A stretch of DNA of 64,000 nucleotides from Spirochaetia bacterium (GCA_049519415.1 JBEKQU010000007.1:24061-88060), one strand, 5' to 3'; counted from the first letter of the stretch, positions 10,717 to 63,405 are shown. The notes: generated by a model not told the origin, from the sequence alone. Program-made: numbers and translations.

Positions 10717-11817
10717 TTATTGTTGAGCGAATTTGCTGATGGTTTTCTGAGCTTTCGCGGCGATGAAAGCCCCGAGAAGGGCGTTGCCGTAGCCGTGCGG
10801 ATGCACTCCGTCGCACGCAACCTGCGTGGGTACGTCCACTTTGAATAGATGCTGCAGGGGTGCCGTATCGATCAGGTGGACTTTTGTATCGCCTTTTTCG
10901 TTTGAGATGGATACAGTATGCGCCAGCTCTTTCGCATGCCAGCCGAGCGGCGGCACAATGCAGAATACCAGGGCATTCGGACATGCTGTACGCAGGGAAG
11001 CAAGCCATAGCAGATACGCGTCAGTGACGTCCAAATGCCTCAAGGTGCCGGCCTCTCTTATAAAATCGTTCGAACCCATCGCGCAGAATATATAATCGGG
11101 TTCGGGGAGCAATTTCGAGTCGATGAGCCGGGAATAGTCCCTGCAATAATGATCCCAGGTGTCCGTCAATGGAGGCATTTGAAGATGCGTGATTACCATG
11201 CCCTGGCCCCCGGTGCCAAGCTGGCCGTATTCGCAGCCCAACGCGGCGCAGACAAGCGGGAACCAGGTGGTACGGGCATTGTTATGCGCCAGATTGCCGT
11301 AGAAATGGGTGTCTTTGTCCAGGGCAAGCAACTCTGAATACACCCCTTCCGTGAAGGAATCCCCATAGCAGATCGCGGTCCTCGGACGTCTTGGAACGGA
11401 AATAAGAGAGGCGCCGTCGTTCACTTCGAAACCGGCTATTCGCAGGCTGTACAGCGATGAGTCCCAGCGTTCCCGGGAGAGCATCGCCGAGCGAAAATAC
11501 AGGTCAATCCGATGCTGTGCCGGCGGATCTTCTCCATGATACAAGGGGATCACATAGTGCTCTTCCGTTTTTGAGAGCTGCTCGGAAACAAACGGCCCAA
11601 AATCAACAGAGTATTCGACCATCGGCATTGCAGTCGAAGCACAGCCGATATTTCCAGCGCCGCCGATAATGATGCCGATGTCGGAGGCGTTTTTAAATAC
11701 AGCCTTGATGTACGCCCCGGGCATGTTTGCTTCTATTTTTGCGTCTGGTCCAATTCCCGTTTTTTTCCAGACATAGGGCGCGAGCAGAATGTCTTCGCTG
11801 TCGATAGTGATCCGCAT
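10717..11817 (-). CDS. SGNH/GDSL-family hydrolase (putative carbohydrate esterase) with an N-terminal extra domain
   Basis: GDS motif (AICYGDSFTEGV) and D-x-x-H motif (CDGVHPHGYG). ATG at 11815-11817 sits 17 nt downstream of the permease gene. Lower GC than the surroundings. Confidence 0.7.
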   Translation of the reverse strand: MRITIDSEDILLAPYVWKKTGIGPDAKIEANMPGAYIKAVFKNASDIGIIIGGAGNIGCASTAMPMVEYSVDFGPFVSEQLSKTEEHYVIPLYHGEDPPAQHRIDLYFRSAMLSRERWDSSLYSLRIAGFEVNDGASLISVPRRPRTAICYGDSFTEGVYSELLALDKDTHFYGNLAHNNARTTWFPLVCAALGCEYGQLGTGGQGMVITHLQMPPLTDTWDHYCRDYSRLIDSKLLPEPDYIFCAMGSNDFIREAGTLRHLDVTDAYLLWLASLRTACPNALVFCIVPPLGWHAKELAHTVSISNEKGDTKVHLIDTAPLQHLFKVDVPTQVACDGVHPHGYGNALLGAFIAAKAQKTISKFAQQ

Positions 11818-51199: not shown

Positions 51200-52926
<1,727 letters not shown>

Positions 52927-52930
<4 letters not shown>

Positions 52931-53841
52931 GCCGGAAGCTCGTCGAGTGCGTGCCTAACTACAGCGAGGGCAGAAGAGAGCGGGTCATGGACGCCATTGT
53001 GGCGCCGTTCCGCGACAGGCCGGGCGTTCACCTGCTCGATCATCGCGCCGATCCCGACCACAACAGGCTCGTGGTGAGCCTCGTGGGCGAGCCGGAGCCG
53101 ATCCAGGAATCGCTTCTGGAATCAGCCCGGACCGCGGTCGACGCAATCGATCTCCGGGTCCATACCGGCGCTCATCCACGGATCGGGGCCGTGGATGTGA
53201 TACCGTTCGTCCCGGTCCGGGGCATCACGATGGACGAATGTGTTTCGCTGGCGCGCGGGTTCGCCGAACGCTATGCCCGGGCCACTGGAGTACCCGTGTA
53301 TCTCTACGAGCATGCGGCATTGCGGCCGGAGCGGCGGAAACTGGAAAATGTCAGAAGGGGGCAGTTCGAAGCCCTTGTCAGAGAGATCGCGAACCCCGAA
53401 AGGACACCGGACTTCGGGGCGCCCGTGATCCACCCCAGCGCCGGCGCAACGGCCATCGGCGCCCGGCCCTTCCTGATCGCCTTTAACATCAACCTGCAGA
53501 GCAGTGACATCAATGCGGCGCGTGACATCGCCAGAGCAATCCGCGCCTCCGGCGGCGGTCTCTCCCATGTCAAGGCCATGGGCATCGAGCTGGCCGAGCG
53601 CGGCATGGTGCAGGTGAGCATCAATGTCACGGAGTATCGCGTCAATCCCCTTCATGAGGTTCTTGAGAGGGCGCGCGCCGAGGCTTCGCGCAGGGGCATC
53701 CTGGTCGCGGAGACCGAGATCTACGGCCTGGTGCCGGCCGAGGCATTGGTCGCGACAGCGGAGCATGCCCTGCAGCTGGCAGGATTCAATGCATCCCAGG
53801 TGCTCGACCTGCGGCTGCTCGACTTGATGGAGAAGGCATAG
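52927..53841 (+). CDS. ftcD: Glutamate formimidoyltransferase (FtcD formiminotransferase domain as a stand-alone protein)
   Basis: [19 protein letters not shown]-terminus is canonical for the formiminotransferase domain. ATGA overlap with hutU. Confidence 0.85.
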
Positions 53842-53842
53842 G

Positions 53843-55135
53843 ATGCCTCTGGCGCTTTTCCGCAACGCCCGGATCGCCACGCCGGTGGACAGCGGTCACC
53901 CGGCAGCCGGGCCCGCCCAGGGGAGATTGGCGCGGTGGGACAGGGGCGCGCTTCTTTGCCGGGACGGCGGAATCGTTGCCGTGGGAGACGAGACCGGGGT
54001 GCTCGGCGCCTTGGACCCGGCAGCCAGGCGCGACGTGCGGATCGAAATCGACTGCGGCGGCAGGTGCATGATTCCGGGCTTTGTGGATCCTCACACGCAC
54101 CTTTGTTTTCTTTCGCCCCGGGAGCGTGAGTTTCTTTCCCGGCTGGACGGCGCGGACTATCTATCGATCCTTGAAAAGGGCGGGGGAATCCTCTCTTCCG
54201 TCGAATCGGTTCGATCCTGCTCAGAGGAAGAGCTATTCGGCGCCACACGGAACCGGGCGCTTTCCGCGCTTCATCTCGGGACGACGACCGTCGAGATCAA
54301 GAGCGGATACGGGCTTTCCCTGGAATCGGAGTTGAAGCAGCTGCGCGTCATTGCCAGGCTGGGTCGTGAGACCCCGATCTCCGTCGTTCCGACATTCATG
54401 GCCGCCCACGCGGTACCGCCGGAGTTTGCGGGCCGGGCGGAGGAATATGTCGAGTTCATTGCGGCGGAAATGCTGCCCCGGGTGGCGGCCTCGGGCATGG
54501 CACGGTTCTGCGATGTCTTCTGCGAGCAAGGGGCCTTCAGCCCCGAGCAGGCGCGCCGCATTCTGGAGGCCGCGCGCGCGGCAGGCCTTGGGCTCAAGCT
54601 GCATGCCGACGAGCTTCACGACATGAGCGCGGCCGGCCTAGCGGCCCAAATGGGCGCGATCTCCGCGGACCATCTTCTTGCAGCTTCGGACCGGGGCCTG
54701 CGCGCCATGGCGGAGGCAGGGGTGATCGCCGTGCTCCTCCCACTGACCGCGTTCAGCATGCGCAGGCCATATGCCCGGGCCCGCGCCATGATCGAGATGG
54801 GCCTTGCCGTCGCGATCGCCACGGACTGCAACCCGGGCTCCTCCTGCATCGAGTCCATGCCTTTCTGCTTTGGGATTTCCGTTGTGCAGATGGGAATGTC
54901 CGTGCCCGAGGCGCTCACCGCATCGACGCTGAACGCGGCATACGCCTTGGGAATCGGAGCCGCCGCCGGGAGCATCACGCCGGGCAAAAGCGCGGACTTC
55001 CTCCTTCTGGAGGGGGAGACTCCCGGAATCCTCGCCTTTAGAACCGGGGCCCCCGTTGTGACGGATGTGTACAAGGCCGGGAAAAGAGTGTGGCGTTCGG
55101 CTGCTGAGGAGGCCGCGCCTCGGGAGGTTCCGTGA
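53843..55135 (+). CDS. hutI: Imidazolonepropionase
   Basis: Amidohydrolase metal-binding motif IPGFVDPHTHL. 430 aa. Confidence 0.9.
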   Translation: MPLALFRNARIATPVDSGHPAAGPAQGRLARWDRGALLCRDGGIVAVGDETGVLGALDPAARRDVRIEIDCGGRCMIPGFVDPHTHLCFLSPREREFLSRLDGADYLSILEKGGGILSSVESVRSCSEEELFGATRNRALSALHLGTTTVEIKSGYGLSLESELKQLRVIARLGRETPISVVPTFMAAHAVPPEFAGRAEEYVEFIAAEMLPRVAASGMARFCDVFCEQGAFSPEQARRILEAARAAGLGLKLHADELHDMSAAGLAAQMGAISADHLLAASDRGLRAMAEAGVIAVLLPLTAFSMRRPYARARAMIEMGLAVAIATDCNPGSSCIESMPFCFGISVVQMGMSVPEALTASTLNAAYALGIGAAAGSITPGKSADFLLLEGETPGILAFRTGAPVVTDVYKAGKRVWRSAAEEAAPREVP

Positions 55136-55746
55136 AGCTCATCGAACGGTCCGTCGAAAGCTTGCTGGGGGAGCTTGCATCCGTTTCTCCGGCTCCCGGC
55201 GGAGGAAGCGCCGCGGCACTGGCCGGCGCCATGGCCGCGTCCCTGTGCTGCATGGTCTGCCGGGTCACGCTCGGCAAGAAGAGCCTGGCGGATTCGTGGC
55301 CGGAGATGAAGGAAGCGCTGGAGAACGCGGAGCTGCTCGGCGCAAGGCTTCGGCGGCTCGTTGACGAGGATGCCGACGCCTTCACGGCTGTCGTTGCCGC
55401 CCGGAAGCTGCCTCAAGAAGACGCCCAGGACGCGATCGTTCATTCCGCGCGCGTGCCGCTGGAAACGCTGGAGACGCTGGCGCGGTTGGCCGGGATCGTG
55501 GAGCGCGTTGCGCGCAAAGGAAATCCCTCCTGCGTCACCGACGCCGGCTCAGCCGGAGCGATGGTGCGGGCGGGCGCGCTCTCAGCCGCGTACAATGTGC
55601 GCGTGAATCTGCCCGACATCTCCGACGAGTCGCTCAGGCGTTCTATCGCGGCTGGCGCGCTCGCCGCGCTCGCCGCGGTGGAGGAGGCGGCAGGCGGGGT
55701 GGAGCACGCGCTCGAGCAAAGCCTGGGGAAATGGAGCACGGTATGA
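55132..55746 (+). CDS. Formimidoyltetrahydrofolate cyclodeaminase (FtcD cyclodeaminase domain as a stand-alone protein)
   Basis: 204 aa. MKLIERSVESLLGELASVSPAPGGGSAAALAGAMAASLCCMV is the typical cyclodeaminase N-terminus. GTGA overlap with hutI. Confidence 0.8.
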   Translation: MKLIERSVESLLGELASVSPAPGGGSAAALAGAMAASLCCMVCRVTLGKKSLADSWPEMKEALENAELLGARLRRLVDEDADAFTAVVAARKLPQEDAQDAIVHSARVPLETLETLARLAGIVERVARKGNPSCVTDAGSAGAMVRAGALSAAYNVRVNLPDISDESLRRSIAAGALAALAAVEEAAGGVEHALEQSLGKWSTV

Positions 55747-57272
55747 CGGAATGCGTGATCGGCGACGGTCCCCTCTCCATTGATGCCCTTGGGGCCATTG
55801 CGCGCGGAGGGGCGAAGGTGGAGCTTTCGCCCGGCGCGCGGCAGCGCGTCATCGATGCGCGGCGTCTTGTTGAAAAATGGGTGCGCGAGGGCCGGGCCGT
55901 CTACGGCGTAACCACCGGCTTCGGCGCCCTGTGCGACGTGGCCATCGCCCAGGAGCAGACCAGGCCGCTTCAGGAGAACATCCTCATGAGCCACGCGGCC
56001 GGCGTCGGGGATCCCTTTCCCGCCGACATCGTGCGCGCCATCATGGCGGTGCGCATCCAGGACCTGTCCAAGGGGCGGGCGGGGCTGCGGCTGCAGACCC
56101 TCCAGGCGCTCGTGGATCTGCTGAACTCGGGCGTTGTCCCGGTGGTGCCGGAGAAGGGTTCCGTCGGCGCGAGCGGCGACCTGGCGCCCATGGCCCACCT
56201 GGCGCTGGTGCTCATTGCAAAAGGTGATGCCTTCTATCGCGGCCAGAGGATGCCCGGCGGGGAGGCGCTCGCCGCCGCGGGCCTCTCGCCGGTCCACCTG
56301 GAAGCGGGCGAGGGGCTGGCGCTCATCAACGGCACGCAGGTCATGGCCGCGATCACGGCCCTTGCCGTGCTCGACGCGGAGCGTCTTGCGCGCACCGCGG
56401 ACATTGCCTGCTCCATCAGCCTTGAAGTGCTCATGGGCACCAACGTGCAGTTCGATCCCCGGATCCATCGCGCCCGTCCCCATCCCGGCCAGATTGCCGC
56501 GGCCGACAACATGTACCGCATCACCAGGGACAGCGCCATCATGTCGTCGCACAAGGAGTGCGGCAGGATCCAGGACGCCTACACCCTGCGCTGCTCCCCG
56601 CAGGTGCATGGGGCCAGCCGCGACGCGGCCAGCCACGTGAAGCGCGTGGTGGAGATCGAGCTGGATTCCGCCACCACCAACCCGCTCATCTTCCCCGAGA
56701 CCGGCGAGTTCCTTCTGGGGGGCAACTTCCACGGACAGCCGCTCGCTCTTGCAGCCGACTACCTCTGCATGGCCGCGGCCGAGCTGGCCAACATCTCGGA
56801 GCGCAGGATCGAGCGCCTGGTCAATCCGCAGCTCAGCGGACTTCCCGCTTTCCTCGTGAACGATTCGGGCCTGAACTCGGGGTTCATGATTGCCCAGTAC
56901 ACCGCCGCGGCCCTCGTGTCGGAAAACAAGGTCCTGGCTCATCCCGCCTGCGTGGACTCCATTCCCACGTCGGCGAACAAGGAGGACCATGTCAGCATGG
57001 GCGCCATATCGGCGCGCAAGTGCCGCAGCATCATCTCCAATGCGGAGGCGGTGATCGCAATCGAGCTTCTCTGCGGGTGCCAGGCCGTGGACCTCCTGAC
57101 AAAGGGAAGGCCGGGGCGCGGCACCGAGGCGGCGTACAAAACATGCCGGCATACAATTCCCGTTCTGGATCGCGATCGCGAGCTGCATCGGGATATCGAG
57201 GCCATGACCGCGCTGGTGAGGTCGGGCGACATCGTGCGCAGCGTGGAGGAAGCGGTCGGCGCGCTGGGCTAG
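55743..57272 (+). CDS. hutH: Histidine ammonia-lyase
   Basis: MIO-forming Ala-Ser-Gly triad (GSVGASGDLAPMAHLA). ATGA overlap with the upstream gene. Confidence 0.9.
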   Translation: MTECVIGDGPLSIDALGAIARGGAKVELSPGARQRVIDARRLVEKWVREGRAVYGVTTGFGALCDVAIAQEQTRPLQENILMSHAAGVGDPFPADIVRAIMAVRIQDLSKGRAGLRLQTLQALVDLLNSGVVPVVPEKGSVGASGDLAPMAHLALVLIAKGDAFYRGQRMPGGEALAAAGLSPVHLEAGEGLALINGTQVMAAITALAVLDAERLARTADIACSISLEVLMGTNVQFDPRIHRARPHPGQIAAADNMYRITRDSAIMSSHKECGRIQDAYTLRCSPQVHGASRDAASHVKRVVEIELDSATTNPLIFPETGEFLLGGNFHGQPLALAADYLCMAAAELANISERRIERLVNPQLSGLPAFLVNDSGLNSGFMIAQYTAAALVSENKVLAHPACVDSIPTSANKEDHVSMGAISARKCRSIISNAEAVIAIELLCGCQAVDLLTKGRPGRGTEAAYKTCRHTIPVLDRDRELHRDIEAMTALVRSGDIVRSVEEAVGALG

Positions 57273-57273
57273 C

Positions 57274-60200
57274 TCAGCGGCTCATGTATGTGACATACGC
57301 GGATTGCACCCTGTTGAAACGCTCCGTGAGAGCGGAGAGAAGCTGTTCCGCTGTCGCGCCGCTGCCCATCATGAGCCGGGCGAGGGCGCGCAGCTGCGCT
57401 GGGTCGCGGGGAAGGCTGTGCGTCTGCCTGTCCTCGTAGATCTGGAGGAAATGCTCGACCCGGCGCAGGAAAAGGTAATCGGCCGAGAGCTGCTCGACGA
57501 TGGGGAGGGGCAGGATTCCGGCATCGGCCAGCGCCCGAAGAGCGGGCAAGGTTCCGCCGCCGAGGAGCCGGGGGTGATCGTGCGCATGCACGAGCTGCAA
57601 GCCCTGCGCCAGGAACTCGACGTCGCGAAGCCCGCCCAGGCCCGTCTTGATGTCCGTCGGGTTGAGGATGCTGCGGGAAAGGGCGCGTATGGCTTGCCTG
57701 CGCAGCCGGTCGATGGTGGATGCAACCTCCCCCTGCGCGTGGGGCGCGAGGAGCAGATTGCGCACGGAATCGAGGAAAGCCTGGCCTACGGCTAGATTGC
57801 CGGCCACGGGACGCGCCTTCAGGAGCGCCTGCAGCTCCCACAGCGCCGCCCTGCGCGTGTAGTAGTCGGTGAGCGCTGAGAGCGTGAAGACAAGCTGCCC
57901 CGAGCTGCCATAGGGACGGAGGCGCAGGTCCACGCGGTATGCATAGCCCTCCGTGGTATGGGCGGAAAGATCGGCCCGGAGGGCTTCCATGATCCGCGTG
58001 GCCGGCTCCTCGGGATCGTGGTCCCCGTCCCCCGTGCACAGCCCCAGCAAATCGATGTCCGAGCTGTAATTCAGCTCCCTTCCGCCGAGCTTGCCAAAGG
58101 CGATCACGCAGAAGCCCAGCACCCGGCCCGCATTCTCCCTCCCGGAGCCGTCGTGCTCCTGGGACCGGATGCGCGCCAGTGCCGCGGCGATCACTCCGTC
58201 GGCCAGATCGGAGATTTCCTCCATGATCCGCTGCGTCGGCGTGCCCAGGCAGATGTCGCGCGCGCCGATGCGCAGGATCTCCCTTCGGCGGAACCGGCGC
58301 ACGAGATCTCTCCATTCGTCGCGCCCGGCTGTCCGAGCCGAGAGCGCGGCAAGCTCCTCGGCGATCTCCGCGCTGGTTCGCGGGGCGTGGATGACCTCCT
58401 GCCTGCCGATGGAATCCAGGAGGCGGGGATCGCGCACCAGCGTGTCGGCCAGGAACTGGCTCGCGGAGAATATGCTTAAGAGTATCTCCAGGCGCATGGG
58501 CTGGGAGAGCATCTGTGCCAGGTGCGCCTGGGGGTCGGGAAGCGCGTGGAGGAACCTCTCCCAGTTGTTGAGCGCCATGTCCGGGTCCGGCCTGCGCGCG
58601 AGCACGTCGCATGCCAGGATGGCCAGCCGGGCAAAAAGCATTCTCCGCTCCGCTTCCCCGCCGATACGGCGGAGGTTGTGCAGGGCCCGGGCCGGATCTG
58701 AGAATCCACGGTTCGCCAGCGCCTGATGCGCGAGTGTTTCAGGCACGGTGTCGGAGAGCACGAGGTCCGCCACGGTCACGACGGGCGCGCCGGGGATGCT
58801 GTCCCTGCCGAAGTGGCGCTCCACAAAGGCGCGAACGGCCGCCGTGTGCGCCTCGAAGTCCAGGTGCAGCTTCTGCGCGGGGGTGCTCTGCGGCTCCGCG
58901 CCATAACCCATGCGGCGCGCGAGGTGCAGGTACTCGTCGGAATCCAGCTTGGGCAGGACGAGATCCCGCGCCGATCCGCGCAGCATGCGCAGGCCATTGA
59001 TGAGCCTTCGAAAGAATCGGTAGGCGGTCACCAGCTCCGCGGCGTCCTCCCTCTCCACCACCCCGATGGAGGCCAGGGCCGCGAGCGCCTCGTGGATCCG
59101 GGGGGTGCGCAGCGCCGGTTCCGCCGCGCCGCGCAGCACCTGGAGGATCTGCACCGCGTACTCCAGGTCCACCAGCGCGCCGGGGCTGAACTTCGCGTTC
59201 AATCCCTGCGCCGTTTTTTCCTGGACCTGCCGGGCGCGCAGCTCCCGCAGCTCGGCCAGGTTGATGCTCTGCGCCGAGTAGACCATCTCGTCGCGCAGCC
59301 TCTCGATCTGGCCGCCGAAGGCGCCGTCTCCTCCCACGGCGCGCAGCCGGACCAATGACAGCCTCTCGTATGAATGCGCCGGGCCTCCGCGGGCATAGTA
59401 GGTGCAGAAGCTCTCCAGGCTGCACGCAAGGGGGCCCGCGGCGCCGTACGGCCGCAGCCGAAGATCGATGTGAAAGATCCCCTCCCGCTTGGCGTGCACC
59501 AGCCTCAGGATCTCGCGCACCATCCGGTCGAAGAACTCCGCGTTCTCTATGCGCTCGGGCCCGGCAGTGGACCCGCTGTCGCTGTAGGCGAACATGATCT
59601 CGATGTCTGACGCGTATCCCAGGGCCACTCCGCCCAGCTTTCCCAGTCCCACCACGGCGTAACGCACCGGCAGCCCCGCAACGGTGTGCGGCTCCCCGAA
59701 CCGGCGCGCAAGCGCGTCCCATGCATGCGCCGCGGCGGCATTTACCACGCACTCGGCGAGCGCCGTGAGACGCCGGCTCAGGAGGAGGAAATCGGATTCG
59801 AACGCATCCGCCTCAGTCGAACGGCGCGAGGTGAGGATGTGGTCCAGGTCGAAGAGGTAGATTTCCCTGTCCTTGAAATCGTTCAGGCGCCGCGCGAACT
59901 CTTCCGTGTCCCCGGCGCCCGCCAGGACCGCGGACAAGCGATCGGGAAGCAGCTCCAGCGGCTCTGAGAAATGCGCGCCGCCCATGTGCGGCGCGAGCAT
60001 GGGGAGCAGCTCCTCGTATTGCAGCCGCACGAAGTCCTCCCAGAGGAAGGTGCTCGCGCCGAGCAGCTGCGCGAGGTCGCGGAGCACGGCCTGGTCGGAG
60101 AGCATCTGCACCCACTTCCCCTGCCGGGGCATCATGAGCACGTCCTTCACGAGCTGCTCGAACCGCAAAAGCGCCGCGAGGGGATCGGGCGCGCTCCCCA

Positions 60201-61026
60201 GGAAGGAGGTGAACTGTTTGGTGAGCAGCACGGAAAGCTTGATCCGGTCTATGCGCGCGGGGTCCTCGATGCCTTGGCCGGCCGCGTCCACGAACTCAAA
60301 CTCGTCCTCGATCCTCCCCCCCTCGGTGCGGATGGTGACGCACTCTATGGACACCTCCTGGAGAGTGAGGGCGGTGGAGAAGGTGAAGAGGAAGAAGGGG
60401 GTATCCTGGGAGAGCACGCGCATGCGCGTATGGCCCTGCGCGGAGCCGCTCACCTCTATCTGTACGGGGTAGAGGACCGAGCCCGCGGAGATCGTGATCT
60501 CCCCAATGGCGCTTGCCGCCAGCTCGTTGACGATCTGCCGCGCCCGGGCCGGGGCCTCTCCGCCGCGCTCCATCAGGCCGAAGACCTGCTCCAGCCGTTC
60601 GCGCAGGCGCGTCGGCCACGAGTCGTCCCATTGACGCGCCGTGACGGTGCCGGTGAAATGGTCCACGATGCGCCTTCGTCTCAATCCGATATCCATCGGC
60701 GTGTCCGCGGAGGGGGGAGCCCAGGTGAAGATATCCCCGGCGTTGATGTCAAAGCCCAGGGAAGACAGGATCCCCACGATGGCGGAGAATGCGCCCGGAT
60801 GATCGAATGCAAGCACCGTGCACGTGAGCCCGCCACCCCGTTCCCGGCCGACCCGCAGCGTCACCGGGCATTCAGGGCCAAGGAGCGCAAGCCCTTCCAC
60901 GTGTGTCGCGATCTCTTCCTCCGAGAACCGCTGGAAGTACCGGGCATCGAGCCGCGTCAGGTGTTCCCTGACAAGGCGCGGGTCCATGTTCAAAAGAAGG
61001 GGGTTGTCGGGTTGGATTTCCGGCAT
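57274..61026 (-). CDS. GlnE-like double nucleotidyltransferase (glutamine-synthetase adenylyltransferase/deadenylylase type) with two N-terminal ACT-like domains
   Basis: 1250 aa. Two GlnE-type NT cores (GKLGGVALGYASDIEI...HIDLRLRPYGAAG and GKLGGRELNYSSDIDL...RVDLRLRPYGSSG). Two upstream ACT-like segments (TCTVLAFDHPGAFSAIVGILSSLGFDINAGDIFT and TRMRVLSQDTPFFLFTFSTALTLQEVSIECVTIRT). Confidence 0.7.
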   Translation of the reverse strand: MPEIQPDNPLLLNMDPRLVREHLTRLDARYFQRFSEEEIATHVEGLALLGPECPVTLRVGRERGGGLTCTVLAFDHPGAFSAIVGILSSLGFDINAGDIFTWAPPSADTPMDIGLRRRRIVDHFTGTVTARQWDDSWPTRLRERLEQVFGLMERGGEAPARARQIVNELAASAIGEITISAGSVLYPVQIEVSGSAQGHTRMRVLSQDTPFFLFTFSTALTLQEVSIECVTIRTEGGRIEDEFEFVDAAGQGIEDPARIDRIKLSVLLTKQFTSFLGSAPDPLAALLRFEQLVKDVLMMPRQGKWVQMLSDQAVLRDLAQLLGASTFLWEDFVRLQYEELLPMLAPHMGGAHFSEPLELLPDRLSAVLAGAGDTEEFARRLNDFKDREIYLFDLDHILTSRRSTEADAFESDFLLLSRRLTALAECVVNAAAAHAWDALARRFGEPHTVAGLPVRYAVVGLGKLGGVALGYASDIEIMFAYSDSGSTAGPERIENAEFFDRMVREILRLVHAKREGIFHIDLRLRPYGAAGPLACSLESFCTYYARGGPAHSYERLSLVRLRAVGGDGAFGGQIERLRDEMVYSAQSINLAELRELRARQVQEKTAQGLNAKFSPGALVDLEYAVQILQVLRGAAEPALRTPRIHEALAALASIGVVEREDAAELVTAYRFFRRLINGLRMLRGSARDLVLPKLDSDEYLHLARRMGYGAEPQSTPAQKLHLDFEAHTAAVRAFVERHFGRDSIPGAPVVTVADLVLSDTVPETLAHQALANRGFSDPARALHNLRRIGGEAERRMLFARLAILACDVLARRPDPDMALNNWERFLHALPDPQAHLAQMLSQPMRLEILLSIFSASQFLADTLVRDPRLLDSIGRQEVIHAPRTSAEIAEELAALSARTAGRDEWRDLVRRFRRREILRIGARDICLGTPTQRIMEEISDLADGVIAAALARIRSQEHDGSGRENAGRVLGFCVIAFGKLGGRELNYSSDIDLLGLCTGDGDHDPEEPATRIMEALRADLSAHTTEGYAYRVDLRLRPYGSSGQLVFTLSALTDYYTRRAALWELQALLKARPVAGNLAVGQAFLDSVRNLLLAPHAQGEVASTIDRLRRQAIRALSRSILNPTDIKTGLGGLRDVEFLAQGLQLVHAHDHPRLLGGGTLPALRALADAGILPLPIVEQLSADYLFLRRVEHFLQIYEDRQTHSLPRDPAQLRALARLMMGSGATAEQLLSALTERFNRVQSAYVTYMSR

Positions 61027-61029
61027 AGA

Positions 61030-61080
61030 AAACTCTAAAAAATGATAGCAGAAATGCAGCCGCCTGCCGGCGGCGGCTGC
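61030..61080 (-). terminator. Putative intrinsic terminator: 9-bp GC stem (GCAGCCGCC / GGCGGCTGC, 7-nt loop) followed on the minus strand by a T-rich tract (ATTTCTGCTATCATTTTTTAG)
   Basis: Read directly. Lies downstream of the minus-strand lipoprotein gene. Confidence 0.4.
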
Positions 61081-61119
61081 CTCCTTGCCCCGTGCCTCAC
61101 CATCCAGACGACATCGTTT

Positions 61120-62169
61120 TCACCGGTATGACTCGATCAGGAAATCATCGAAATCAGCGGAATAACCGGACATCGGCGTCTGTGTGTCGTCCACGATGTA
61201 ATTATAGAAGACCACAGCTCCGCCGGAGATCGGCGTTAGATCGGTAATGCTGACCGTACCGATTGTGGTTGTCCCCGTGGAGTTTTTTATCCGTGCCGTA
61301 ATTGTCGACCCGCTGGTTTCTATTTCGAAAATGTACCAGTTCCCTGGGGGCACCGAGTCAGTAACATCGTACATCGCTGGAATTGGCGAAGCAACGTCGT
61401 TTTCTCCATCCGTCCGGGCGAGTTTCAGGAAAAGGTGGTCGGTCTCACTATCAAATACCAAAGAAGTATAGTATCCCTCGTAGGTGATCTGTGTGTTTAT
61501 CTCGAGTCCGAGAAACTCTTTCGGCGATTCTGGATGGCCGCCCGTGTCGATAATTGCTTTCACTGAGACGCGCAATGGCTTCGCGTAGTCAACAGCACCC
61601 TTGTAGACTGCGCCCGCCCCTTGGCTTTGGCCCTCGATTGTTGTCGTAAAGACCGAGTGAACCTGATTGTTGTGGATTGTAATTTCGTCGGTACCAGACC
61701 CCATTGTCGTCCAGTCAGCGCCCAAATCCCTGCCGGTGGTATCCGCGCGGTTGAAGTTGTCTAGGAACACGGTCGTCCATGCCGGCGCAGGGGTTGGCTC
61801 CGTCACCGTCACCGCGCAGGTCGCGGTCTTGCCGCCATCCGCTGTTTCCACCGTGATTGTTGCGCTTCCCGCCGCCATCCCTGTTACCAGCCCTGAAGAG
61901 CTCACCGTGGCGCAATTTGCGGCGCTCGTTGACCATGTCACGGCCGCGTTGGTAGCGTTTGATGGCTCAACCGTCGCGGTCAGCTGCTGCGTACCTCCAA
62001 CATCAAGCGACGCGGTCGTCGGACTCACGCTCACCCCTGTTACCGCAACATTCACTGGAGTATCTACCGGGGGACATCCCGCCAACGTGAGAGCAATGAC
62101 AACAATCATGGGGAATACCATCCATGCACTTTTCAATGAAATTCTTTGTCGTTGGGTGTTTTCCATATT
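61120..62169 (-). CDS. Lipoprotein with a bacterial Ig-like (Big_2) domain and a C-terminal beta-rich domain
   Basis: Signal peptide with lipobox (MVFPMIVVIALTLAGC) and a Big_2-like segment (VTGVSVSPTTASLDVGGTQQLTATVEPSNATNAAVTWSTS). Visibly lower GC (about 50%). Start at MENTQ (62169) or upstream at 62199. Confidence 0.65.
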   Translation of the reverse strand, partial: NMENTQRQRISLKSAWMVFPMIVVIALTLAGCPPVDTPVNVAVTGVSVSPTTASLDVGGTQQLTATVEPSNATNAAVTWSTSAANCATVSSSGLVTGMAAGSATITVETADGGKTATCAVTVTEPTPAPAWTTVFLDNFNRADTTGRDLGADWTTMGSGTDEITIHNNQVHSVFTTTIEGQSQGAGAVYKGAVDYAKPLRVSVKAIIDTGGHPESPKEFLGLEINTQITYEGYYTSLVFDSETDHLFLKLARTDGENDVASPIPAMYDVTDSVPPGNWYIFEIETSGSTITARIKNSTGTTTIGTVSITDLTPISGGAVVFYNYIVDDTQTPMSGYSADFDDFLIESYR

Positions 62170-62235
62170 ACTACTTCCTCCTAGCCGGTGGTTTATCACA
62201 TTTTTTTATATCGTTGCTCACATTCACTATCCTGT

Positions 62236-62262
62236 CAAGGATTTTCATAAAGCAAATCCTTG
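62236..62262. promoter_or_regulatory. Perfect 9-bp inverted repeat CAAGGATTT-N9-AAATCCTTG in the divergent intergenic region. Downstream TTGACA-N18-ATGAAT is a candidate promoter for URO-D paralog 8.
   Basis: Read directly from the sequence. Confidence 0.35.
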
Positions 62263-62340
62263 GAGCCATGCCCCGGTTGCCGCCTGCCGGCAGTGTTGAC
62301 ACAATCGCTGACACGTGACATGAATCCCCGGGAGAGAAGT

Positions 62341-63405
62341 ATGCCGAAAGATTCAATGAGCCCAAGAGAGAGATGGCTCGCGGTCCTGACGCGAAAGTCC
62401 CCCGACAGGGTGCCCATGGATTACTGGGCAACGGAGGAGGCAACGCGCGGGCTGCTGAAGCATCTTGGCTGCGCCGATGAATTGGCCTTGTTCCACCGGC
62501 TGCACATCGACAAGCCGCTGACAGTCGGACCGCGCTACACCGGACCGGCGATTCCCGGCGATTCGGACGAGTTCGGCTGCCGCTACAGGGACGTGCGGTA
62601 CGGCACGGGGAGCTACCGGGAATGCGTCCATCACCCCCTGGCCGAATACGAAACCTTGGAGGATGTGAAGAAGGGGTATCGATGGCCCAGCCCGGACTGG
62701 TGGGACTACTCGGGCATCCCGGACCAGACGGCCGCGCGAAGCGGCTTTCCCGTGCAGGGCGGCGGCTCCGAGCCGTTCCTGATCTACAAGAACCTCCGCG
62801 GAGATGAGCGTGCGTTCATGGACCTCGTGGAAAAACCGGACATCGCCCATTGGTGCCTGGACAGGCTGTTCGATCTTGCATGCGAAAACTCCCGGCGCAT
62901 TTACGAGGCAATCCCCGGCAGGGTGACCCTCTCCTACGTGGCCGAGGACATGGGGTCCCAGGACGGCCTCATGTTCTCCCCAGCGCAGATCCGCCAATTC
63001 TTCATACCCCGGATGAAGCGGATCATCGACTTGGCGCACCAGGCCGGCGCGTTCGTGTTCCACCATAATGACGGAGGGGTGCGGCGCATCATCCCCGACA
63101 TGATAGAGGCGGGGATCGATGTGCTGAACCCGATACAGTGGCGGTGCGGGGGCATGGAGCGCGAAGGGCTGAAGAAGGATTTCGGGGACCGGCTCATTTT
63201 CCACGGCGCGGTGGACAATCAACGGACCCTGCCGTTCGGCACGGTGGATGATGTCCGGCAGGAGGTGCAGGACAACCTGCGGATCCTCGGCGCCGGAGGA
63301 GGCTATATCCTCGGGCCGTGCCACAACATCCAGGCCGTGAGCCCCCCGCAAAACATCGTGGCCCTGTACGAAACCGGCTATGCGCTAGGATACACGAGGG
63401 GATGA
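62341..63405 (+). CDS. URO-D / MtaA-CmuA superfamily protein, paralog 8
   Basis: MSPRERWLAVLTRKSPDRVPMDYW N-terminus and AEDMGSQDGLMFSP ... FVFHHNDGGVRRIIPDMIEAGIDVLNPIQ. The zinc-motif Cys is absent (HHNDG). Confidence 0.7.
   Translation: MPKDSMSPRERWLAVLTRKSPDRVPMDYWATEEATRGLLKHLGCADELALFHRLHIDKPLTVGPRYTGPAIPGDSDEFGCRYRDVRYGTGSYRECVHHPLAEYETLEDVKKGYRWPSPDWWDYSGIPDQTAARSGFPVQGGGSEPFLIYKNLRGDERAFMDLVEKPDIAHWCLDRLFDLACENSRRIYEAIPGRVTLSYVAEDMGSQDGLMFSPAQIRQFFIPRMKRIIDLAHQAGAFVFHHNDGGVRRIIPDMIEAGIDVLNPIQWRCGGMEREGLKKDFGDRLIFHGAVDNQRTLPFGTVDDVRQEVQDNLRILGAGGGYILGPCHNIQAVSPPQNIVALYETGYALGYTRG

Follow-up and report, generated by a model that had tools for sequence, protein, structure and literature searches.

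A GlnE-like double nucleotidyltransferase with an N-terminal GlnD-type ACT pair, from a Spirochaetia bacterium and its uncultured relatives

The stretch of DNA analyzed here, a 64,000-nucleotide window from a Spirochaetia bacterium (GCA_049519415.1 JBEKQU010000007.1:24061-88060), carries on its minus strand a complete open reading frame (57274..61026, ATG to stop) for a GlnE-like protein of 1250 amino acids, in which two ACT-like domains precede two nucleotidyltransferase units, NT1 and NT2. This protein and its relatives are referred to below as ACT-GlnE. As originally predicted, the gene converges with a histidine-utilization (hut) operon; 1 bp lies between the end of the last gene of that operon, hutH (55731..57272, plus strand), and the glnE stop codon, and the same histidine-to-glutamate operon lies beside the gene in seven genomes, counting the window and six relatives. 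A terminator-like GC-rich hairpin (61056..61080, minus strand) in the gap that separates the upstream Big_2 gene from the glnE start codon suggests that glnE is transcribed on its own, the hairpin being a consensus match only, of which two were found and 2.1 were expected by chance. Further upstream, 5.2 kb away on the same strand and separated by ~5 kb of unrelated genes, is glnA, a gene for glutamine synthetase I (GS-I) with 53% identity to E. coli GlnA, and no riboswitch or other Rfam RNA family was found around either glnA or glnE. An identical protein has been called on JGI contig Ga0427963_0000538, and the same unbroken reading frame recurs on many independent contigs, which rules out gene fusion by mis-assembly; the ACT-GlnE fusion is real.

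The prediction of a 1250-residue, GlnE-type double nucleotidyltransferase holds for this reading frame. Pfam places PF03710 (330 bits, E 8.6e-99) on two stretches, residues 316-574 and 848-1085, and the helical domain PF08335 (147 bits) on two more, residues 594-736 and 1119-1243, one after each PF03710 match and both families far above their cut-offs, giving the tandem architecture of GlnE; NT1 alone is GlnE-type by PF03710 (E 1.5e-38). Identity to E. coli GlnE is 31% over ~800 amino acids, and the structures of that enzyme, 1v4a and 3k7d, are recovered from the PDB by sequence and by Foldseek alike. The NCBIfam equivalog cut-offs for GlnE are missed by all three models (PRK11072, 485.5 versus 487; PRK14109, 515.6 versus 625; PRK14108, 374 versus 724), with a PRK11072 shortfall of only 1.5 bits. 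The GlnD model TIGR01693 scores the whole protein at 87 bits versus a cut-off of 519, Pfam detects no HD domain (PF01966) in the 1250 residues, and the GlnD-type order of NT and HD domains is absent. About 420 residues had been thought to lie ahead of the GlnE cores, which overcounts the extension because residues ~280-445 are the helical front portion of the first GlnE unit; the extension beyond canonical GlnE is really ~270-300 residues.

In the extension, a linker of three short helices (residues 13-47; 60886..60990, minus strand) aligns with the linker before ACT1 in E. coli GlnD (654-690). The first ACT-like domain (ACT1, residues 55-154; 60565..60864, minus strand) has strands at 55-61, 67-74, 92-101, and 119-128, helices at 79-89 and 137-154, and a D75-x-P motif, and the second (ACT2, residues 189-276; 60199..60462, minus strand) has strands at 189-194, 200-207, 226-235, and 238-246, helices at 212-222 and 256-276, and a nearly invariant D208-T-P-x-F-L motif. 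Residues 17-264 are matched by TIGR01693 (positions 618-843 of 850, E 1.8e-11), and a profile of the module aligns with residues 652-869 of E. coli GlnD over 217 columns that cover both ACT domains (hhalign probability 95.3%, E 2.3e-8). The same query also picked up a true GlnD in Luminiphilus. Judged from these profiles, the N-terminal module of linker, ACT1, and ACT2 (~280 amino acids) is homologous to the C-terminus of GlnD, and the earlier description of the protein as a GlnD/GlnE hybrid is a fair one.

Structure prediction agrees, with an AF2 model of the module (pLDDT 88.5, pTM 0.89) that contains two beta-beta-alpha-beta-beta-alpha units. Foldseek matched the module to the ACT domains of L-GDH180, the regulatory domains of IlvA, and SerB2 (probability 0.9-1.0) and more weakly to the regulatory subunit of aspartokinase (0.63), while the single domains reached TM-scores of 0.66-0.76 against solved ACT domains, normalized to the target. 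The ACT fold on which the original prediction turned, a ferredoxin-like beta-alpha-beta-beta-alpha-beta arrangement, is thus present, and the two ACT-like segments it placed at the N-terminus are borne out by GlnD HMMs, hhalign, AF2, and Foldseek. The domain HMMs it proposed as a check gave a split result, with PF03710 and PF08335 matching and the Pfam ACT model PF01842 staying below its cut-off (17.4 to 21.7 bits versus 27, with a partial match at residues 70-96). The ACT question was settled by GlnD HMMs, hhalign, and structure prediction, the Pfam ACT model being insufficient by itself.

The amino acids bound by ACT domains are many and varied, and the domains can also serve oligomerization only. 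The D-x-P loop motifs of ACT-GlnE are conserved in both ACT domains among relatives and are compatible with ligand binding. A mainly structural pair, used for dimerization or for docking (for example to the GS dodecamer or PII) and sensing no small molecule, would fit the ACT-like dimerization modules of plant bHLH factors found among the Foldseek matches (9c7n and 9c7o), the AF2 model of residues 1-800, whose pTM of 0.85 suggests fixed packing against NT1, and the coexistence of PII and GlnD with the fusion in one deltaproteobacterial genome described below. Such a role is nevertheless quite improbable, as the loop residues typical of ligand-binding ACT domains are nearly invariant in both repeats and the module is homologous to a sensor module.

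Behind the putative sensor, NT1 spans residues 300-790 (58657..60129) and NT2 residues 790-1250 (57277..58659), both on the minus strand like the motifs that follow. NT1 contains the nucleotidyltransferase motif GKLGGVALGYASDIE (residues 462-476; 59599..59643) and HIDLRLRPYG (519-528; 59443..59472), and NT2 contains GKLGGRELNYSSDID (978-992; 58051..58095) and RVDLRLRPYG (1031-1040; 57907..57936). Both signatures had been predicted for both cores; (H/R)xDLRLRPYG occurs in each, but GxLGGxExxYxSDxD is found as such only in NT2, the NT1 version having alanine in place of glutamate and ending in D-I-E. Carboxylates of the Pol-beta type (G-x-G-G...D-x-[DE] plus the aspartate of D-x-R-L-R-P) occur in both units, at D474, E476, and D521 in NT1 and at D990, D992, and D1033 in NT2. 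The three NT1 residues are invariant among 54 relatives, and D521 would be the third catalytic carboxylate of that unit.

In E. coli GlnE an adenylyl-removing (AR) half is followed by an adenylyltransferase (AT) half, and in ACT-GlnE this order appears, from sequence comparison, to be reversed, as HMM scores, hhalign, motifs, and a neighbor-joining (NJ) tree indicate an AT-like NT1 and an AR-like NT2. The AT HMM gives the higher score for 93 of 102 NT1 domains and the AR HMM for 63 of 67 NT2 domains, with mean leans of 17 bits toward AT and 27 bits toward AR, respectively, gaps that are small compared with the 100-250 bits separating canonical AR and AT halves in leave-one-out controls; unlike canonical halves, both ACT-GlnE units score nearly equally on the two profiles. 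By hhalign, NT1 scores 453 against AT and 407 against AR, and NT2 scores 650 against AR and 559 against AT. The ELNYSSDID of the NT2 motif recurs, letter for letter, as the AR-half motif in GlnE of Sinorhizobium and Tistrella. With actinobacterial references left out, the NJ tree splits AR plus NT2 from AT plus NT1 in 188 of 200 bootstraps; with them included, the two actinobacterial halves group together and the four-way split is lost, NT2 still falling with proteobacterial AR halves. NT1 forms a long separate branch in these trees.

Other comparisons do not favor this assignment. The PRK11072 alignment is colinear and places NT1 on AR, which counts against an AT-like NT1, pairwise scores bring both units nearer the E. 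coli AR half, the three NCBIfam GlnE models give conflicting alignments, and Foldseek with the model of residues 1-800 does not separate AR from AT. Assignment by colinearity with E. coli was discarded as ambiguous, colinear and crossed BLAST alignments being equal (286 versus 172+117 bits). The canonical GlnE pattern of AR followed by AT, with clearly assignable halves, is not what ACT-GlnE displays.

Relatives were collected by an exhaustive search of representative sequences and clustered at 50% identity, and the ACT pair is kept in 139 of 139 newly found clusters among the best 150 matches. Two word-index homology searches gave no match longer than 570 amino acids, all of them short or frameshifted pieces with few taxon names. 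The relatives, labeled in databases simply as GlnE, come mostly from MAGs of Spirochaetota, Deltaproteobacteria, and other groups; the architecture, whose phylogenetic distribution had been raised as a question, is common in metagenomes and not singular to the present gene. The fusion is widespread in uncultured bacteria and apparently so far undescribed; among the papers searched, none combines GlnE with an ACT-domain phrase, which is no proof of absence. Three layouts occur (ACT2 here standing for the pair), namely ACT2-NT1-NT2 as in the present gene, NT2-ACT2-NT1, and stand-alone ACT2-NT1, the last encoded by complete genes of ~740 codons, and in all three the ACT pair stands immediately ahead of NT1 wherever both are present.

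The genomic context points to glutamine synthetase. The adenylylation tyrosine of the GS-I encoded near ACT-GlnE (LDKDIYDLPPEE) aligns with that of E. coli GlnA, and neighboring GS-I genes of relatives keep it; GS-I, modified at this tyrosine, is the predicted target. At least 10 relatives have glnA 5′ of the ACT-GlnE gene, with ~2-9 kb to the start of the latter, and one further relative (L022) has it downstream. In the window, the unrelated genes that separate glnA from the ACT-GlnE gene and the hairpin ahead of the latter count against the reading favored below. In a deltaproteobacterial genome (L038) glnA is directly adjacent, within a side-by-side group that also includes glnD and two PII genes. 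One stand-alone ACT2-NT1 gene is flanked by three GS genes, and some family members have no GS gene nearby. Taken together with the sensor-AT-AR reading, ACT-GlnE is predicted, with somewhat better than even confidence, to be a GlnE-family enzyme of a deep-branching subfamily that reversibly AMPylates GS.

A different substrate for the protein or for NT1, either PII, which would make it an HD-less analog of GlnD, or GS-III, would accord with the missed equivalog cut-offs, the long NT1 branch, the GS-III gene adjoining a stand-alone ACT2-NT1, and the members without a nearby GS gene. It is very unlikely in view of the clearly GlnE-type rather than GlnD-type character of both units, the recurrent linkage to GS-I genes that retain the target tyrosine, and the lack of any PII gene at distances up to 10 kb across 24 related loci. 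On the original question of whether glnD and PII genes are present, neither turned up across the window and those 24 loci, and both are present in the related genome L038. Because both coexist with the fusion in that genome, ACT-GlnE does not simply replace glnD and PII, and replacement as a general rule is ruled out.

In the textbook GS adenylylation cascade, GlnD acts as the glutamine sensor, PII as the relay, and GlnE as the executor. The reading favored here is that GS-I is AMPylated under direct control of the ACT pair, which would be an amino-acid sensor, probably for glutamine, that gates the adjacent AMPylating domain. The putative sensor module of linker helices, ACT1, and ACT2 is fused right before NT1, the unit with the invariant D-x-E...D triad. 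With abundant nitrogen, the ACT pair would bind an amino acid, glutamine being the likeliest, and in its ligand-bound state would switch on the neighboring AT-like NT1, which would AMPylate the tyrosine conserved in the GS-I encoded nearby and lower GS activity; when the ligand drops, the AR-like NT2 would take the AMP off again. In some lineages, input from PII and GlnD may still be superimposed on this control. A bolder version, in which ACT-ACT-NT1 is an autonomous glutamine-gated GS AMPylase, used alone (~740 amino acids) or joined to a removing domain at either end, and replaces the GlnD-PII relay in lineages such as these Spirochaetota of peat and soil, is put forward only tentatively and is rather doubtful.

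The glutamine response of GlnD requires its ACT domains. That the protein could sense glutamine directly, as originally suggested, is plausible. In canonical GlnE the AT half already confers a response to glutamine, with no ACT domain in the enzyme (bioRxiv 10.64898/2026.09.02.748916), so glutamine sensing would not be a new capability in ACT-GlnE and the ACT pair might sense something else. The same enzyme would then receive a second metabolic input, for instance from glutamate, some other amino acid, or a nucleotide, in keeping with Foldseek neighbors whose ligands are Ile/Val, Ser, or Thr/Lys or which come from glutamate dehydrogenase, with the classical D-x-P-G loop, whose glycine is not conserved in ACT1 and is missing from ACT2, and with the recurrent histidine-to-glutamate operon. 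That operon, however, is convergent with the gene and involves no co-transcription, and the nearest sequence relatives of the module are GlnD ACT pairs, known for their role in the glutamine response; a non-glutamine ligand is rated unlikely.

If glutamine gating by the ACT pair is correct, a GlnD sensor has been wired straight onto a GlnE catalytic unit, and the cascade is shortened in a widespread subfamily with three layouts, none of which separates the sensor from NT1 where both occur. ACT-GlnE would then offer a natural handle on the site and manner of GlnE control by glutamine or another signal, and on how AMP addition and removal are divided between the GlnE halves. Biochemistry, structural work, and the engineering of ammonium-excreting diazotrophs would have compact candidates in the ~740-residue single-unit forms. 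Should the module be a mere variation layered over PII control, the finding would amount to a useful refinement of annotation.

ACT-GlnE shares with E. coli GlnE (b3053; 1v4a, 3k7d) two tandem PF03710-PF08335 units with catalytic carboxylates, and differs from it in the added N-terminal GlnD-type ACT pair (~280 amino acids), the apparently reversed units, and the invariant D-x-E of NT1. With GlnD (NT-HD-ACT-ACT) it shares the linker and both ACT domains, the PF08335 helical domain, and the nitrogen-regulation theme, whereas it lacks HD, its NT units are GlnE-type, and its ACT pair is N-terminal to the NT unit instead of C-terminal. GlnD-like ACT domains also occur on or beside enzymes of carbon and nitrogen metabolism in eukaryotes: an N-terminal one gives glutamine activation to Chlamydomonas alpha-amylase 2 (AMA2; PMC11190351), and the plant ACR protein ACR11 acts on the GS/GOGAT cycle (PMC3173338). 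Their catalytic partners are unrelated, and the likeness to ACT-GlnE is one of logic rather than family membership. In Streptomyces coelicolor, GS adenylylation by GlnE is controlled without PII or GlnD, according to the citation of that work in bioRxiv 10.64898/2026.09.02.748916, and the ACT fusion might, by analogy, reach a similar autonomy. Positions 45-780 of the 1010-position actinobacterial GlnE model PRK14109 align from residue 270 of ACT-GlnE onward, leaving the ACT module without an actinobacterial counterpart.

The gene designated ACT-GlnE (57274..61026, minus strand) reads from ATG to stop as 1250 aa, and a JGI metagenome contig, Ga0427963_0000538 (89.7 kb, sample 3300038451), encodes the identical predicted protein. 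Pfam places two copies of PF03710 (E 8.6e-99) at aa 316-574 and 848-1085, each followed by PF08335 (aa 594-736 and 1119-1243), the first nucleotidyltransferase unit being NT1 and the second NT2. The motif GxLGGxExxYxSDxD had been claimed for both cores; it stands for NT2, where the pair GKLGGRELNYSSDID (aa 978) and RVDLRLRPYG (aa 1031) is exact, but not for NT1, where GKLGGVALGYASDIE (aa 462), accompanied by HIDLRLRPYG (aa 519), has Ala in place of Glu and ends in D-x-E. Judged by its conserved catalytic residues, NT1 is not a dead domain, because G462, K463, G465, D474, E476, D521, and R525/P526 do not vary across 54 sequences. Compared with E. coli GlnE, the protein is 31% identical over ∼800 aa by BLASTP, and as this alignment starts at query position 418, equivalent to E. 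coli 117, the extension beyond canonical GlnE comes to ∼270-300 aa rather than the ∼420 aa of the original prediction. Strict GlnE equivalog cut-offs are not reached, PRK11072 being missed by 1.5 bits. Identification as a GlnD, the PII uridylyltransferase with a C-terminal ACT pair, was ruled out by the lack of an HD domain.

The reading of this protein as a GlnE with two N-terminal ACT domains was right in substance, with agreement among GlnD models, BLASTP, profile alignment, and structure prediction. The Pfam ACT model is weaker evidence, as it stays below threshold at 17-22 bits against a gathering score of 27 and matches only aa 70-96. The first 280 aa alone match NCBIfam GlnD models in their last third, namely TIGR01693 at positions 618-843 of 850 (E 1.8e-11) and PRK05092 at positions 686-919 of 940, and aa 13-101 align with E. 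coli GlnD 654-742 by BLASTP. In hhalign, a profile built from 21 sequences of the N-terminal module matches residues 652-869 of E. coli GlnD across 217 columns (probability 95.3%, E 2.3e-8), covering the linker helices and both ACT domains. The AF2 model of aa 1-300 (pLDDT 88.5, pTM 0.89) is confident and opens with three short helices, after which come two beta-beta-alpha-beta-beta-alpha units (aa 55-154 and 189-276), and Foldseek matched it in the PDB to the ACT domains of Mycobacterium smegmatis L-GDH180 (E 2.8e-5), the regulatory domains of IlvA, and SerB2, with single plant ACT-like domains at TM-scores (normalised to target) of 0.66-0.76 and a weaker match to an aspartokinase regulatory subunit (prob 0.63). 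Profile and structure analysis therefore both find the ACT fold whose absence would have refuted the original reading, and the module is specifically GlnD-like. As a positive control, the 270-aa module query also retrieved an authentic GlnD encoded in a Luminiphilus MAG (L025:1182-3638), 40% identical to E. coli GlnD and the weakest genome match of the query.

ACT-GlnE is no one-off: it belongs to a large, as yet unnamed subfamily of GlnE that occurs in three domain layouts. An exhaustive phmmer search with aa 1-270 against 1.84 billion 50%-identity representatives returned 578 clusters at E≤1e-3, of which 273 reached E≤1e-10 and 65 reached E≤1e-30. Among the best 150 matches, 139 newly found proteins were classified by the query's own segments, and all 139 carry the module. 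The layout module-NT1-NT2 accounts for 51 clusters (1190-1380 aa) and module-NT1 for 38, at least 10 of which are 725-762 aa long and end exactly at the NT1 end; six have NT2-module(-NT1), confirmed by Pfam for P0122 and P0130, and 44 are fragments with the module only. The short module-NT1 genes P0047, P0143, and P0112 are complete and contig-internal, as is the permuted gene P0130. Whenever a protein of this census has both ACT pair and NT1, the pair immediately precedes NT1, and sensor and NT1 therefore form the conserved evolutionary unit. Most of the named relatives are Spirochaetota MAGs recovered from peat, fen, and soil, in which the module is 54-70% identical; others come from Deltaproteobacteria, unclassified Proteobacteria/Pseudomonadota, Chloroflexi, Actinomycetota, and a Rickettsiales-labelled MAG. 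Their source annotation is 'glutamate-ammonia-ligase adenylyltransferase' or 'hypothetical', and no paper pairing GlnE with ACT domains was found in the literature searched.

Gene calls are truncated in many of the database relatives located on contigs of 100 kb to 1.2 Mb, P0001, P0013, P0015, P0028, and P0030 among them, and end in frameshifted sequence rich in Arg, Ala, and Pro. Indels in long-read assemblies of high-GC DNA are the probable cause, and the full-length architecture is thereby hidden from word-index searches.

The E. coli enzyme has its adenylyl-removing half (AR) before its adenylyltransferase half (AT), but reading NT1 as AR by colinearity is unsupported, as colinear and crossed BLAST scores against E. 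coli GlnE are equal and three NCBIfam GlnE models disagree on the assignment. Nine canonical GlnE proteins (E. coli and eight from chromosomes filed in PLSDB) were cut at the E. coli boundary to build separate AR and AT profiles, which separated canonical halves by 100-250 bits in leave-one-out controls. The AT score exceeded AR in 93 of 102 NT1 domains (mean +17 bits) and AR exceeded AT in 63 of 67 NT2 domains (mean -27 bits), a weak but consistent signal. Profile-profile scores run the same way (NT1-AT 453 versus NT1-AR 407; NT2-AR 650 versus NT2-AT 559), and a neighbor-joining tree with proteobacterial references grouped AR with NT2 and AT with NT1 in 188 of 200 bootstraps and recovered the colinear grouping in only 2, although NT1 is a long branch, a caveat on its AT assignment. 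Sinorhizobium and Tistrella have the NT2 motif ELNYSSDID unchanged in their AR halves, and ALGYASDIE of NT1 resembles AT motifs. Foldseek does not tell AR from AT (1v4a, E 5.7e-19; 3k7d, E 7.7e-17). The four-way split is lost once actinobacterial references join the tree, with NT2 still beside proteobacterial AR halves. The order in ACT-GlnE is quite likely sensor-AT-AR, with the catalytic halves reversed relative to E. coli, and a reversed order probably characterizes the subfamily. On that reading, NT2-module-NT1 relatives would keep AR before AT, as canonical enzymes do, and carry the sensor between the two. In the tree that includes actinobacterial references, the two actinobacterial GlnE proteins (Tsukamurella, Nonomuraea) have AR and AT halves that group with each other and not with their proteobacterial counterparts, which could be an artefact of long branches or composition, or reflect gene conversion or an independent duplication.

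A type I glutamine synthetase (GS-I) gene, glnA, lies just outside the window (L001:3388-4812), 5.2 kb upstream of glnE on the same strand; its product shares 53% identity with E. coli GlnA and has LDKDIYDLPPEE aligned to the adenylylation loop of the E. coli enzyme, MDKNLYDLPPEE. Related loci with glnA 5′ of ACT-GlnE, ∼2-9 kb from the start of the latter, number at least 10, and in one further locus glnA is downstream. On a 4.7-Mb Deltaproteobacteria MAG contig (CP070692.1, L038:1-11698), ACT-GlnE directly follows glnA in a compact nitrogen cluster of sigma54 activator, amtB, PII, glnD, PII, amtB, glnA, and ACT-GlnE, so that one genome can hold the fusion together with GlnD and the signal protein PII; NCBI labels this gene 'partial' because a 100-N scaffold gap (11699-11798) cuts it. 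No PII or GlnD gene occurs in the window or within 10 kb at 24 related loci, a result that speaks for these neighbourhoods only. On a 228-kb metagenome contig (L042:5666-13340), a complete stand-alone ACT-ACT-NT1 of 742 aa has a GS-III gene on one side and, on the other, two GS-I genes that both keep the tyrosine at the adenylylation position. This gene linkage makes GS the probable substrate throughout the subfamily, with a different substrate as a less likely rival.

The difference from known GlnE is real and consists of an added predicted sensor, whose role is directly testable. Alongside the observed architecture, GlnD homology of the module, conserved catalytic residues, adjacency of sensor and NT1, and GS-gene linkage, a mechanism can be proposed in which glutamine or another amino acid would bind the ACT pair, the ligand-bound pair would gate the adjacent AT-like NT1, and NT2 would undo the modification. 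The response of GlnD itself to glutamine requires its ACT domains. In Chlamydomonas AMA2, a GlnD-like N-terminal ACT domain leads to glutamine activation (PMC11190351). In canonical GlnE, glutamine activates AMPylation via the AT half, and the role of PII in GlnE control differs among bacteria (bioRxiv 10.64898/2026.09.02.748916). Alternatively, the ACT pair may sense a different ligand, or its role may be purely structural or one of docking.

Between glnA and glnE (window 62260-63405, plus strand, and L001:5665-9174) are genes for a URO-D-family protein, an AP_endonuc_2 (xylose-isomerase-like TIM barrel) protein, and 649-aa and 148-aa proteins, both without a Pfam match; as far as seen, these have no tie to nitrogen control. 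Rfam detected no RNA element in the glnA/glnE locus, and no Shine-Dalgarno sequence is evident ahead of the glnE ATG. At 61000-62500 GC drops to 0.555-0.59, against ∼0.67 on either side; this low-GC island contains a minus-strand ORF (61120-62199) whose product carries a Big_2 bacterial Ig-like domain, and a terminator-like GC-rich hairpin (61056-61080) lies between this upstream gene and the glnE start. On the other side, glnE is convergent with a histidine-utilisation operon, as originally predicted, the stops of hutH and glnE lying 1 bp apart. The operon (51200-57272, plus strand) is of the formiminotransferase/cyclodeaminase type, with hutU (urocanase), formiminotransferase (FTCD_N/FTCD), hutI (imidazolonepropionase), cyclodeaminase (FTCD_C), and hutH (histidine ammonia-lyase), and the hutH-glnE convergence is kept in six Spirochaetota relatives.
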